Positions 28,930 through 39,596 of a DNA stretch of 45,573 nt are shown here, piece by piece. The stretch spans positions 1 to 45,573 of the forward strand of contig NW_021835101.1 in assembly GCF_006345805.1 (NCBI RefSeq), written 5' to 3'. The first letter of the stretch is position 1; each line of letters begins with the position of its first letter. This DNA is from Octopus sinensis (taxonomy: Eukaryota). The translations under genes and the position numbers were made by a program. The notes beneath the pieces were generated by a model that had not been told where the DNA came from, did not search any database, and worked only from the letters and a program-made list of their open reading frames with translations.

Positions 28930-29682
28930 TTCGCAGAATTAGGTAAGTTGAAAAATATATATATATAACGAAGTAATGGTACAAAGCATTGTCTACGTAT
29001 AGCACCAATTTAGGTTTTTTGAAATATGTTTATCACATATTTCAACTGCTAAAGGCAAGTATACTGCAGTTACTGTGGAGAAAAATCTCTCTTATGTTAA
29101 AAAAGTATGAAAACACCCAATTCGTTCAGTGTTGTCATCTCTCGAGAATCTTAAACATCGATGTTTCGAGTTTATTGACTTTTGTCAATGAGCTGTAACT
29201 AAGAGAGACAACTCTGAACGAACTAAATAAAGCATGTAGCTTTATATATAATTCAGTCAACATGTTGATTTGCTCTAGTAGATTGCCCGATCGAAATAAA
29301 TAACGAAGTAATGGCGCAAAGCAGTGTTTACGTATATTCGGAATTTAGGTTAGTTGAAATATATTTGTCTGAACCAACTGCACCTTTACTTTGTTATTCA
29401 TTTCAATCGGGCGATCTATTAGGGCAGATCAGGCAACATGTTGACTGAATTATATATAAAGCTACAAGTTTTATTTAGTTCGTTCAGAGTTGTCTCTCTT
29501 TGGTATATCTCATCGACAAGAGTCAATAATCCCGAAACATCGTTGTCTGAGATTCCCGAGAGATGGCGACACTGAACGAACTGGGTGTTTTCACACCTTT
29601 TTACCATAAGAAAGATTTTTCTGCACGGTAACTGCAGTGTATTTGCCTTTAGCAGTTGAAATATGTGACTAGCCTAAATTAT

Positions 29683-33516: not shown

Positions 33517-34361
33517 AAAGTGAATCGGAAGAGATTCCTGGATGACTGTTTCATACTCTGGAATAACAACTTAAACAAACTCCTAGAATTTAAAACACTT
33601 CTGAACAGCATCCACACAAGCATTCAATCCACAATGGAATACAACCAGCAGGCACTTCTATTCCTAGGCATCTAATTAAAAAAACAAACAACAACAAAAT
33701 CGAAATAGACATATTTTATAAAACAACAGATGCAAAACAATACCTTTTCTTTAGCTCTTGCCATCCTAGACACACAAAAACAAACATCCCCTTCAAACTT
33801 GCAAGAAGAGAAGAATCAATAAGTTAATATCAGAGAAAAAAAACTAGAGATTTAAGACTACAAGAACTGAAAAACGTCCTCCTGGATAGATGCTACCCAA
33901 TCCAACTCATTAATGAAGGAATAAAACGTGCCAAATCTATCAACCTGGAGACATTAAGAAAAACCAAAGACATTAACAAAACTCTTCTTAAAACACTACC
34001 CTACATATACAACACAGACAACCCCAGAAACAAAGAAGCATTCAGAACAATCATACAAAACCTGCCAATACTACACAAGGACCCAAAACTAAAAATAATT
34101 TTACGCGACAAACAACCTGAGTCATTAAAAAAACTGCTAACTAATGCAAAATTATTCCCCTCCACAAGTTCCAAAGCAAAAACAAAATGTAATCACCCCA
34201 AAATGTTACATGCCCCAACCATTTGCAAGGTCAGAAAGCAATTTTAAACAAAGGCAACACTTTACAATTAAATCAAATTCCACTTGTTCATCCGAAGATC
34301 TGATGATCTACGTAATCAGATGCTCGGGCTGCCAGAAAGACTATATCGGTAGCACGGGGAA
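33517..34361 (+). pseudogene. Neptune-like Penelope RT C-terminus and GIY-YIG N-terminus, frameshifted
   Basis: RFLDDCFILW, DIFYKTTD..QYL.F.SCHP.H.K.NIPF.LARR, FTIKSNSTCSSEDLMIYVIRCSGCQKDYIGSTG. Confidence 0.88.
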
Positions 34362-35410
34362 TTTCTTTTTCCGTAAAGGGAAAAATGCCTCACAAGCAAC
34401 CAAAGAAATATGCACAGTTTACAGTGATGTTTCTTTATCCGAAAGAACTGTACGGAAGTGGTTCGCAAGGTTCCGAGCAGGAGATTGTAGCCTTATTGAT
34501 AAAGAGCGATCAGACAGACCATCCACTAAGTCATTGTTCAACTACATTGCACAACCTGAGAATTGGCAGAAAACCCTCAACCTATCAAAATCCGTCGTTC
34601 ATGAGCACCTGGTAAAGCTTGGGTACACAACTCGCTACGATGTTTGGGTACCACATGAGTTGAGTGAGAAGAACCTTTTGGATCGCATTTCCATCTGTGA
34701 TTCGCTTTATAAACGGAATGAAAACGCACCTTTTTTAAAGAAAATTATGACAGGTGATGAGAAATGGAATGTCTACCGAAATGTTCAGAGAAAGCGATCC
34801 TGGAGTAAGCGACATGAGCCACCCTTAACCACCCCAAAAGCGGGTCTTCTCCCTAAAAAATTTTGCTTTGTATCTGGTGGGATTGGAAAGGAATTCTGTA
34901 CTATGAGCTTCTCCCAAGTAACCAGACAATTGATTCTGAGAAATACTGCACACAACTGGAAGAGTTAAAAGCAGCAATTCAAGAGAAACGTCAAGAATTG
35001 GCCAACAGGAAGGGTGTTGTTTTCCACCATGATAATGCAAGACCGCACGTTTCTTTGAGAACCAGACAAAAATTGCTGAAGCTCGGCAGGGATGTGTTAC
35101 CCAATTCTCCCTATTCACCAGATCTTGCTCCTTCAGATTTCCACTTATTCAGGTCTCTGCAGAATGGTCTTAATAGTGTTAATGGTAAGAATTTCAATGA
35201 CTTGGATGACGTAAAAAGATACTTTGATGAATTCTTTGCCATGAAACCACCTCGATTCTGGGAAGAGGATATTTTCAAGTTAAAGGAAAGATGGAGACAC
35301 ATTGTGCAACAAGATGGTTCATGTTTGGTTGATTAAAAATGTAATGGCAAGTATTCATTGACCTTTTCTCTTCCTTTAAAAATCGGCACGAACTTTCCGG
35401 ACACCCAATG
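34362..35410 (+). pseudogene. mariner (DD34D) transposase pseudogene with 3' TIR only
   Basis: HTH (SERTVRKWFARF), WVPHEL, TGDEKW, HHDNARPH, YSPDLAPSDFHLF; frameshift near 34860; right end aatcggcacgaactttccggacacccaa. Confidence 0.92.
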
Positions 35411-36485: not shown

Positions 36486-37016
36486 ATGAGTGTTTGTGTG
36501 TGAGTGTGTGACTATGTGTATCGATGAATATTTCTGTTTAAAAGGGAAGGGAAGTTAATCAATAGTTAAAGAAGAAATAACCAGAGTATTTATATTTTAT
36601 CAGAAGCTGAAACGCCTGGAATCGTGACTCTGTGTTTCACACTAGGCATTATATACACTCCGGAAGAATAGAAGTAACGTGACATGCATACAGACAAATA
36701 TTCTTGAGGATATCGAAAAATGAAATGTGACTGCATGATATTACTGCACCAGCAGTCGGTTTCGCCCAGGTTCGCGTTCGCGGCTTCCGTACTAGACCGA
36801 GCAACAGAAGTTGCTTTGGAAGCAATTGCACAACGTAAAAATGTATGTCCAATAAGGGTTGCACAACACCTCTCGGAGTCTCTCCAACCTAGAGACGAGC
36901 CAGAGTAAGATATTTGGGATCAATATGGATTGCAGTTTCAAGAATATAGGCGCACAATGATCTCAAACGCAAGCAAGCAGATCTCAAAAATGGTCGATGC
37001 CATTCCCTGCATATAT

Positions 37017-37295
37017 ATAGCTTAAAGATCCAATAGATGTAGAATAAACAGAAAAAAATACTCTATCCAGTGAGAGGTAAATATCAATTTAAATACACAA
37101 CCGAAAGAGCTACTAATAATTTCATGCTATTATGATACTTAAACAGGAATATTTAAATACACAACTGAAGGAGCCATGCATAAACAGAGCCTGAATGATT
37201 GCTTTAAGATACATGCGGTATTTTATAAATATGCCTGTTCAAGTATCATAATAGCCTGAAACTACTAGTAGCTATTCGGTTGTGTATTTAAATTG

Positions 37296-37300
<5 letters not shown>
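37017..37300. repeat. Head-to-head inverted fragments of an HHR-bearing repeat
   Basis: 37081-37147 is the reverse complement of 37234-37299; a third partial copy lies at 37151-37174. Confidence 0.8.
37186..37275 (+). ncRNA. Variant type-I hammerhead (CUGAAUGA core, long stem II)
   Basis: agagc-CTGAATGA-ttgct..gatac...gtatc..agcct-GAAA-ctactag-TA-gctat. The inverted copy has gctct, which restores a 5-bp stem I. Confidence 0.6.
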
Positions 37301-37326
<26 letters not shown>

Positions 37327-37614
37327 CAAACATACATATATATATGTATGTATGTATATATATATATTATATATATAGGTATTTCGTTGTGTAATTGTCC
37401 TGTACACCATTTTTGTTGTTTTTAAAAAATGTCCAGTTCCTTTGGTTTGTGTCTATGTTTTCGTTTCTCTTTGTGTTCGATGTCCCTTTGGTGTCCTGTA
37501 CTCATATATGCGTGTATATGTACATGTAGAGGTAGGTACGTACATATATGTTTATATATATGCATATGTTTTATTTCATTTATTAATATATATATATATA
37601 CATATATATATGTA

Positions 37615-37937
37615 TATAAGGATATTGTTAATAATTTACAATAATATTAGTGGCCAGCATGTGTAAAAGAACCATAAAGGTAAAATTATCAATTAATAAT
37701 GAAGCGTGCTACTTGTAACTCCAGCATCATAAAAATACCAGTCAAAACGACTCACCCACAGTTTTCAGTTATGCACAGGGACGAAATCGAGGGAACGAGC
37801 AGTAAAATTTTAAGACCCCTGTAGCATAGACGAAAAGAATCGAAAATGAAAATCAGACATACCCATATCACAGTGATTTCGAACTTTGAGAACGATCACT
37901 TTGTTCTCATCAGTGAGTAATACTGACCAGGGCCAAC
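37615..37937 (-). mobile_element. Non-coding HHR-bearing unit (retrozyme-like or Penelope pLTR), copy 1
   Basis: Reverse-complement homology to 39208-39292 and 39377-39565; contains the intact HHR at 37860-37919. Confidence 0.75.
37860..37919 (-). ncRNA. Type-I hammerhead ribozyme (canonical core)
   Basis: Minus strand: tactca-CTGATGA-gaac..gttc-GAAA-tcac t gtga-TA-tgggta. 6-bp stem I, 4-bp stem II, near-palindromic stem III, AUA triplet. Confidence 0.88.
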
Positions 37938-39207
37938 TAGTAGCTTCCACGTTGTGATTTCCGGGTAAGAAACTGGTTCTTGGTGACCAGCTTTTTGTTC
38001 ATAGTGCTGGCCGCCTGCCCTACTATCCCAAGGATACTTAGAGTATCTCCCTTGAAGACTTTGAGAAAATTGTGGTTTTGGTACTTGATTGCAGTTATTA
38101 CTGTCTTCATATTTCCGTACGTTTCTGGCATTTGGACACTATGACCAATTGGCACAGATGCAGCTGTGTTGCCATTGTAGAGAAGAACACCCTTTAAACT
38201 TCTGTTAGAAGAATCAATGAAGAGCTCCATTCATCTACTTTGTACGACATCCCCATATGTTCAATAAGGCCAGAAAATTTTGAACAGAAAACTAAAGAAT
38301 ACTCTTTCTTAAAGAACTGAGTGAATCCCACTTCACAATGACGGTACCAAGCGAATGTTGTTCCAGGAGCTATAAGTGTGTTTCTGCAGTCTACAGCCAA
38401 GTAACTGCACGTTCTTTTGGAAGGTTAAGGTCTCTAACCAAGTCATTGAGCTCAACTTGGTTGAAGAATTTAGGATCGCCATTTGTTGGTGGACCATCGA
38501 CCACTTCCATCTCATTAGTATCATAAGTATCAGACTCTGATGAACTTTCCCATGTCTCAGGTGACACATGTATAGGAATATCAGGAATATCATCTGAGTG
38601 TGGAACATGCCTTATTGCTGAAGGAATATTTGGGTATATCATGCGAACTTTAGTATTTTTGTTGAATCCGGTTACTTTAGTTATACAAAAGTAGCAGTCA
38701 TCATAGTGGTTCATCTGCTCCCGCCACACCATTGGTACTCCAATGGGCATACATTCAAGTTTTCCGACTGACCACATTTGAAAGCTTACTGATGCAACTC
38801 TTGCAAGCTTTGTGAGGTGCAAATGGCTTGTCCTGGTCTCCCAGTTTGCAGCCAAAATAAGCTAAATAGCTGCGCTTCAGCAAAGGAGTAATATTGCTCC
38901 GGGAGTCTGAAGGGGTGAATTGCCCGCAGACATAGCAAGAAATATCTGGTGAATTGATGCAGCCTCTAGACATATTCACAGACCGAAAATAAAGAAAAAT
39001 ATATTAGATTTAACGTTCAAGTCAATATAAGGTAAGCGTTTTAATTTATCATTTACTTGTTATACGAAAAGAGAAAATTAACGTCTCCGTATAACTTGAC
39101 AACCTGATGTGATAGAGATGGATAAAAAACACAATGACTCATTATTTTTCATATATATTCAGCAAAAGATACCATACAGCCAATAAATTAAATCATGCAC
39201 ACCAGTG
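37937..39207 (-). mobile_element. Chapaev3 (CMC superfamily) DNA transposon, 3'-truncated, frameshifted transposase (ATG ~38973)
   Basis: CYVCG..YFGCKLGDQDKPFAPH..C..C, PMVWRE..NH..DCYFC, ELNDLVRDL, LFIDSSNRSLKGVLL, WDSRA..HY. 5' end CACTG preceded by TAA (plus cagtg-tta, 39203-39210), matching CAC termini and TWA targets. Confidence 0.82.
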
Positions 39208-39563
39208 TTATTAATTAATGATTTTCCTTTTACGGTTCTTTCACACATACTAGCCACTGATATTGTAAATTATTAACAATAATATTCTTATATATTTAAA
39301 ATGTTTATTCACTTCGATCATCTTTTTTTAAATTTGCCGTGCCATTAAAAATGAGTATCGAACACATGGACGAAGCGAGCATGGTTTTGGCCCTGGGTCA
39401 GTAATACACACTGACGAGAAAATTCGATTCTTTTTGTCTATGGTACTGGGTCTTAGAATTTTACTGCCCGTTCCCTCAATTTCGCCCTTGTGCACAAGTG
39501 AAAGTTTTGAATCGTTTTGACTGCTATTTTTAGCATGCTGGTGCTACAAGTAGAACGCCTCAT

Positions 39564-39565
<2 letters not shown>
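39208..39565 (+). mobile_element. Non-coding HHR-bearing unit, copy 2 (circularly permuted, HHR internally deleted)
   Basis: Keeps tacaca-CTGACGA-gaa, then jumps to ttcgattc, lacking ~60 nt present in copy 1. Confidence 0.7.

Positions 39566-39596
<31 letters not shown>

Follow-up and report, generated by a model that had tools for sequence, protein, structure and literature searches.

Among the closest described relatives of the repeat analyzed here are the non-LTR retrozymes, repeats of 150–450 nt that carry a type I hammerhead ribozyme (HHR) and no ORF, and whose circles are expressed in mussel, among others (Cervera & de la Pena 2020, PMC7229834). A Penelope origin has been argued for the non-LTR retrozymes (Li, Clavereau & Pollet 2026, 10.64898/2026.07.22.740005). 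Specifically, the arguments linking the two draw on shared ribozymes, co-occurrence, and phylogeny (PMC7229834; 10.64898/2026.07.22.740005). Penelope-like elements are described as leaving partial tandems beside an inverted, 5′-truncated copy, with a tail confined to one end and insertion into (TA)n targets (Craig et al. 2021, PMC8557442). Purified Penelope protein is reported to extend both target strands, with two internal start sites defining the tail in vitro (PMC11167929), and pairs of HHRs lying close together on opposite strands were reported in 2014 (Cervera & De la Pena 2014, PMC4209133). Chapaev3 DNA transposons follow a rule of their own: insertion duplicates a 3-bp TWA between an A and a T (Zhang et al. 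2014, PMC4079192).

Here, we describe a locus of Octopus sinensis in which sequences resembling all of these systems adjoin. The window, by which we mean the whole stretch of DNA that was analyzed, comprises 45,573 nt (RefSeq assembly GCF_006345805.1, contig NW_021835101.1, positions 1 to 45,573, forward strand) and makes up an entire unplaced contig of a 2.72-Gb assembly. Its microsatellites and SINEs appear typical of octopus-type genomes. Between positions 37580 and 39591, two inverted arms of an HHR repeat, 82–83% identical to one another in their segments Y and X, flank a Chapaev3-type fragment. We consider it highly probable that three ordinary steps, namely insertion of the repeat, entry of the transposon, and a deletion, gave rise to this arrangement, in which inverted arms of a 420-nt hammerhead repeat enclose a broken Chapaev3-type fragment.

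The left side of the target is a (TA)n microsatellite (37580–37614, from sequence) that borders copy 1 where its 3′ end lies. Copy 1 (37615–37937, minus strand, monomer 183 to 90) reads H-Y-tta-X from 37937 to 37615 and ends at the family’s long, or “tail,” 3′ site. Its segment X (37615–37696, minus strand), as delimited by family arm-end mapping, is an optional tail of ~85–90 nt. The transposon occupies 37938–39207 on the minus strand, and its CACTG terminus, running downwards from 39207, abuts the TTA at 39208–39210 as the first-pass annotation had described. Copy 2 (39208–39565, plus strand) reads tta-X-Z-H′-Y-tta, with X at 39211–39294, Z at 39295–39386, and Y at 39423–39563, and it ends at the family’s short 3′ site. 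A second (TA)n microsatellite (39563–39591, from sequence) forms the right side of the target, where copy 2 has its 3′ end. BLAST alignment of copy 1 to copy 2 bears out the annotated inverted homology around Chapaev3-type sequence: 123 of 149 positions match in Y (83%, E 6e-40), 74 of 90 match in X (82%, E 5e-22), and 30 of the 34 nt preceding the ribozyme match (88%). Copy 2 is 358 nt long and lacks 57 nt of ribozyme (a span of 69 nt in copy 1 versus 12 nt in copy 2), close to the ~60-nt deletion that had been annotated; together, the two lengths approximate one monomer.

Copy 1 carries a type I hammerhead motif (37861–37918, minus strand) recognized by motif and predicted fold. Stem I consists of 5 bp (37918–37914 with 37865–37861). 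The core begins at 37913 with CUGAUGA. A 4-bp stem II, lengthened by an internal loop and hairpin, follows, and after it come GAAA, a palindromic stem III of 4 bp, and the AUA triplet, an arrangement of type I topology. Cleavage is predicted at AUA, between 37866 and 37865. Every core letter is present, and 16 of the 17 helix pairs are canonical. The core pattern is kept in 12 of 25 other near-complete copies; in copy 2, the core is deleted, leaving a remnant on the plus strand that retains the start of the core (39411–39417). In copy 1, a substitution present in one of 19 gap-free copies creates a rival helix. The predicted pairing of G8 and A9 is 0.93 in copy 1, compared with 0.00–0.32 in six of the seven other copies tested and 0.92 in L086. 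The rival helix is thus predicted to trap G8 and A9, so that the copy 1 HHR would misfold. Consequently, the earlier description of this HHR as intact is true of its core letters and probably not of its folding. A search of the HHR region against Rfam returns four matches at E<=10, none of them a hammerhead, and the best 150 of 288 matches in a wider Rfam scan likewise contain no hammerhead, all being microsatellite-driven miRNA matches. Because Rfam reports no hammerhead, our HHR assignment relies on motif and fold. Unconstrained folding of HHR stretches gives uninformative z values of -0.39, 0.34, and -0.59. A weak hammerhead-like core also exists near 11876 on the minus strand. Finally, at two of 47 loci, a SINE-like element, presumably a tRNA-SINE, is inserted antisense directly past the predicted AUA cleavage site (monomer 253–254; L003:934-1375 and L015:1355-1484). 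These insertions may reflect chance or a nick-prone palindrome.

The repeat belongs to a dispersed family. Three queries of the organism’s own genome (copy 2; HHR plus Y; X) were used, and the best 40 candidates of 178, 149, and 165, respectively, were scored; the copy 2 query yields 91 matches in its best 40 of 178. From these, 47 distinct loci other than the window were mapped on the L002 monomer, with overlapping duplicates and locus-less matches omitted. At these loci, the repeat lacks an ORF and is sometimes tandem. The tandem units at L002 recur every 420 nt, matching the ~420-nt template period proposed by the first-pass annotation, and the monomer has a GC content of 32%. The order Y-X-Z-H-Y is contiguous at L002, L003, and L004, so the tandem arrangement is found away from the window, contrary to what a mere local rearrangement would predict. 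The HHR repeat, its period, and its tandem copies together support the annotated retrozyme-like or pseudo-LTR-like unit. Of the 47 loci, 27 consist of a pair of head-to-head arms, and the other 20 show a single orientation. Arms exceed one monomer at four of the 47, the longest reaching ~1.8 monomers per arm. Two intact HHR cores in one array were found at none of the sampled best-match loci, and both tandem cores at L002 are mutated. Thus, the sampled arrays fall outside the “active” category of 10.64898/2026.07.22.740005, given there as two consecutive units with complete HHRs.

Several mapped loci show features of their own. L086 (G000:C8:38431985-38433084) harbors a pair of Z-H-Y-X copies, divergent yet identical to each other, that lie 809 bp apart and have 53 of 53 non-majority letters in common; their identity indicates that a local duplication, of recent date, produced them and not a retro-tandem. 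L006 (1732-2663) and L079 (1751-2691) possess a common non-coding repeat of ~1 kb (994 bp), 76% identical between them, that begins after a short (TA)n behind the 420-nt repeat; the end sites differ. At both loci, the 420-nt repeat likely inserted into the TA tract of another element. At L005, L027, and L079, the repeat is interrupted within ~12 nt of the AT-rich Y|X junction, and foreign DNA separates the pieces.

These properties place the repeat beside the described systems. Like the non-LTR retrozymes of PMC7229834 and 10.64898/2026.07.22.740005, it has an ORF-less monomer of a size (420 nt) inside the published range and a low GC content, a type I HHR motif, tandem and solo copies, and Penelope-like elements in the same genome. 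Unlike the retrozymes described there, its arrays are short, and its insertions are mostly inverted and 5′ truncated. Like the Penelope-like elements of PMC8557442, it displays partial tandems, an inverted 5′-truncated copy, a tail at one end, and (TA)n or AT-rich targets, and, like the Penelope pseudo-LTR insertions of PMC4209133, it houses an HHR within the repeat. In contrast to the Penelope-like elements described in these sources, it carries a tail of ~85–90 nt rather than 30–40 nt, its HHR departs from their minimal form in having a palindromic stem III of 4 bp, and an ORF of the RT–GIY-YIG type is present at none of the 47 loci. Specifically, tblastn finds no Penelope-type ORF at these loci with ~1.5 kb of flank on which to search, and ORFs were listed for the earlier loci. 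The 420-nt repeat is a new family of a known kind, that is, an animal non-LTR retrozyme or non-autonomous Penelope-type element. Among the titles and abstract openings screened, we found no published description of the family; supplements, Repbase, or Dfam may hold one.

The family inserts in a strikingly regular pattern of Penelope type, as the ends of its arms show. Specifically, 28 of 74 arm 3′ ends lie at the end of X, 27 lie at the Y|X junction around TTA, and 19 lie elsewhere. Thus, 55 of the 74 fall inside two intervals covering ~14% of the monomer; the end classes were defined post hoc, and the loci are the best matches to three queries, among which X enriches for tailed ends. Many family 3′ ends continue into TA-rich repeats. 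In all 11 inverted loci at which both ends can be classified, a tailed arm is paired with an untailed one; the remaining 16 of the 27 inverted loci have at least one end outside the two classes. This pairing of tail with no tail, never two alike, suggests that priming is two-ended and uses a different start site at each end. By contrast with the 3′ ends, the 5′ ends are spread over monomer positions 1–414, with none at the cleavage site and one of 74, at L019, exactly at the Y|X TTA. The pair in the window fits the family: copy 1 is tailed, copy 2 is untailed, and both run into (TA)n. The window arms are the family’s standard inverted-insertion footprint.

A candidate source of the enzyme exists in the same genome. 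RT plus GIY-YIG-type elements are abundant, with at least 150 matches (the best of 8110 candidates), and Penelope-type long frames span 782 aa and up to 804 aa (RVT_1, E 6e-07). At the DNA level, only chance-level matches connect the repeat unit to 30 Penelope-type loci, a set that covers two related families out of the 8110 candidates. We infer that the repeat is mobilized in trans by a Penelope enzyme.

Other repeats populate the window, in which the output of a repeat finder is dominated by microsatellites. Within 33828-35340, a Penelope-type ORF fragment (linker plus GIY-YIG-like; 33828 to ~34400) runs into a mariner transposase (HTH_48 and Transposase_1 matches). An inverted pair of 267 nt (11934-12200 and 14059-14325), 84% complementary, with arms beside (TA)n and 1858 nt apart, may represent a further retroelement end in inverted orientation. 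A MITE-like fold-back (29033-29668) has 235-nt arms that are 89% complementary around a 166-nt spacer, and a palindromic, MITE-like dispersed repeat (37010-37300) has many relatives of 70–90% identity in the genome.

The sequence between the arms had been annotated as a Chapaev3 transposase. By its termini and target duplication the element is Chapaev3-type, and the transposase itself is a broken fragment. For comparison, 29 other Chapaev loci were taken from the best 40 of 244 candidates; the least rearranged two-ended copies among them measure ~2.2 kb (1.4–2.8 kb, n=13) and have 13-bp terminal inverted repeats (TIRs). As in the Chapaev3 elements of PMC4079192, the termini read CAC...GTG, with both TIRs present in 13 other copies, and the duplication is a 3-bp TWA between A and T. 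In the window, the 5′ TIR (CACTG...; 39195–39207, minus strand) matches both ends of other copies. Unlike the elements described in PMC4079192, the window copy is a 5′ fragment of 1270 bp with one TIR and a broken frame; the 3′ ~900 bp and the 3′ TIR are gone, and queries with the 3′ parts of six copies find no such sequence in the window. Relative to L033, a fuller copy, the transposase contains frameshifts, a stop, and deletions of 31 and 15 nt that take out conserved stretches. A Pfam search with four transposase pieces returns nothing at cut-off. Motifs resembling the C(2)C, LH, and H(4)H of PMC4079192 can be read by eye in the broken frames of L033 and are deleted or truncated in the window copy.

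Target-site data bear on how the transposon came to lie against copy 2. A-TWA precedes 14 of 22 aligned Chapaev 5′ ends, all with different flanks, and an exact TTA duplication is present in seven of 13 two-ended copies. The intact Y|X junction of the repeat reads A-TTA-T, one of 10 A-TWA-T sites per monomer. This A-TTA-T context marks the left TTA of copy 2 (39208–39210, plus strand), located where Y would meet X, as the Chapaev3 target duplication, of which it would be the remaining half. The right TTA of copy 2 is the untailed 3′ end of the family, and the apparent circular permutation of the two copies follows from these two origins. Thus, the earlier reading of copy 2 as one turn of a circle opened at TTA is not needed. 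The arm-end data neither show nor exclude a circular template.

A stronger form of that reading would make copy 2 a discrete one-turn product of circular RNA opened at TTA, its TTA-to-TTA length being mechanistic rather than an accident of nesting. Copy 2 does amount to one monomer once its deletion is restored, arms pass through the cleavage site and surpass a monomer at four of 47 loci, the published mollusc retrozyme circles of PMC7229834 measure ~350–400 nt, and the L019 arm starts at TTA. We nonetheless regard this account as very unlikely, because the spread 5′ ends pile up neither at TTA nor at the cleavage site, a TTA-to-TTA monomer occurs at none of the 47 other loci, and a multimeric linear transcript accounts for long arms equally well.

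The order of events could also be reversed. In that case, a Chapaev3 element would already have lain between two (TA)n tracts, and cDNA arms, from one or two events, would have been joined by microhomology to its TTA flank and within its body, deleting its 3′ part. Both joints do show microhomology with the repeat, the ages of the two components overlap, few derived letters are common to the arms, and L019 provides an arm that begins at the Y|X TTA. Indeed, given that the L019 arm starts there naturally, Y is not required before the left end of copy 2. Such an order would require a random 5′ truncation, of the kind seen once in 74 ends, to hit the TIR boundary with a full A-TTA-T, a boundary that Chapaev insertion yields without coincidence; moreover, an arm adjoins the transposon at none of the 29 other Chapaev loci. 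We judge it improbable that the transposon came first, and favor its insertion into an existing arm.

The inner junction tells of a different event. Here, the transposon family reads ..CTAGTTGACCC, the repeat reads ..TTTTGGCCCTGG, and the window joins transposon body and repeat across a common TTGRCC(C) of 6–7 nt (37930–37937, minus strand, by comparison with both families), a likely deletion breakpoint. This microhomology suggests a later deletion. The 37937 junction is spanned by contigs of two public sequencing runs from two studies: a contig of run X3 has 0 differences in 210 nt, with 39 nt on the short side, and one of run X9 has 6 differences in 302 nt. A run X2 contig over 37937 that has just 21 letters on one of its sides was left uncounted, and run X11 has no near-identical piece among the pieces listed. 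Because the X3 and X9 contigs bridge it, the junction is real DNA, is not recent, and is no assembly artefact. For the 39207 junction, no spanning contig was found among the pieces listed, with 1171 more beyond them.

The first-pass annotation had offered two alternatives for the locus, a chance nest and a composite ribozyme/DNA-transposon unit. In the latter, the HHR repeats would constitute the inverted termini of a Chapaev3 transposase unit moved as a whole, as the inverted arms flanking a transposase fragment might suggest. A composite that moved should recur, and no recurrence was found. A TIR-TTA-X pattern allowing <=3 mismatches, in which either TIR would be detectable, has one match in 2.72 Gb, the window itself; the nine transposon-side letters are in none of 46 other HHR-region matches; and Chapaev sequence is absent from the flanks of all 47 repeat loci. 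The recurrence searches score best candidates only and might miss a rare recurrence, and the pattern scan is genome-wide within its mismatch limit. At one Chapaev locus, L051, a match of 40–46 bp (~80%) to the AT-rich end of X lies 1.2 kb upstream of the element. Furthermore, the outer ends of the window arms are (TA)n rather than CAC..GTG, and the transposon has lost its second TIR and carries a broken transposase. The composite reading is largely refuted in this assembly, and we assign it an extremely low probability. With unique junctions, and Chapaev–repeat adjacency at no other sampled locus, the chance nest is the alternative that stands.

The three steps of that nest would run as follows. 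First, a Penelope-type RT/GIY-YIG enzyme acting in trans would have copied multimeric or circular repeat RNA into (TA)n, with reverse transcription from two fixed sites ~90 nt apart. The product would be a tailed arm (..H-Y-X) head to head with an untailed arm (..Y-tta-X-Z-H-Y). Second, in keeping with its observed site preference, Chapaev3 would have entered the plus arm at the A-TTA-T where Y meets X, duplicating TTA. Third, a deletion bounded by the 6–7-nt microhomology, with one breakpoint in the body of the transposon and the other in the minus arm, would have taken out the inversion point and the upstream Y together with the left TTA and the transposon’s 3′ ~900 bp, second TIR included.

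Divergence fits this sequence of events. With CpG-prone columns excluded, the transposon differs from its yardstick at 65 of 1200 positions (5.4%) and the arms at 20 of 302 (6.6%) and 25 of 324 (7.7%). Arms older than the transposon is the expected order, and the difference is not significant (65/1200 versus 45/626, Fisher p 0.15). The arms have two of ~18 non-majority letters in common; with so few shared derived letters, a single joint insertion of both arms is not shown by sequence. No pre-insertion, pre-deletion, or allelic copy was found in the best 40 candidates per flank or in the run contigs listed; both outer flanks are themselves repeats, whose best other matches are 81% and 83%. Both parts of the locus are decayed, lying 5–8% from the family yardstick, and mobility of either is unlikely.

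The locus is thus decayed, ordinary nested mobile DNA that matters little in itself. Novelty would have lain in a composite ribozyme/DNA-transposon unit, and the evidence speaks against one. The 420-nt family has more to offer. With its inverted arms, one-sided tail, and (TA)n targets, it adds structural evidence to the retrozyme–Penelope link, and, being small, devoid of ORFs, and mapped at two end sites, it could serve as a substrate for testing two-ended priming. We tentatively entertain a more specific mechanism, one that we hold to be possible and somewhat doubtful: a dimer of a Penelope RT-endonuclease may insert the circular RNA of the ORF-less retrozyme, priming each target strand from its own fixed start, with the two starts ~90 nt apart. 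If so, the strict tail/no-tail pairing would be an in-genome footprint tying animal retrozymes mechanistically to Penelope enzymes, and two-start priming would fix how inverted Penelope insertions form.
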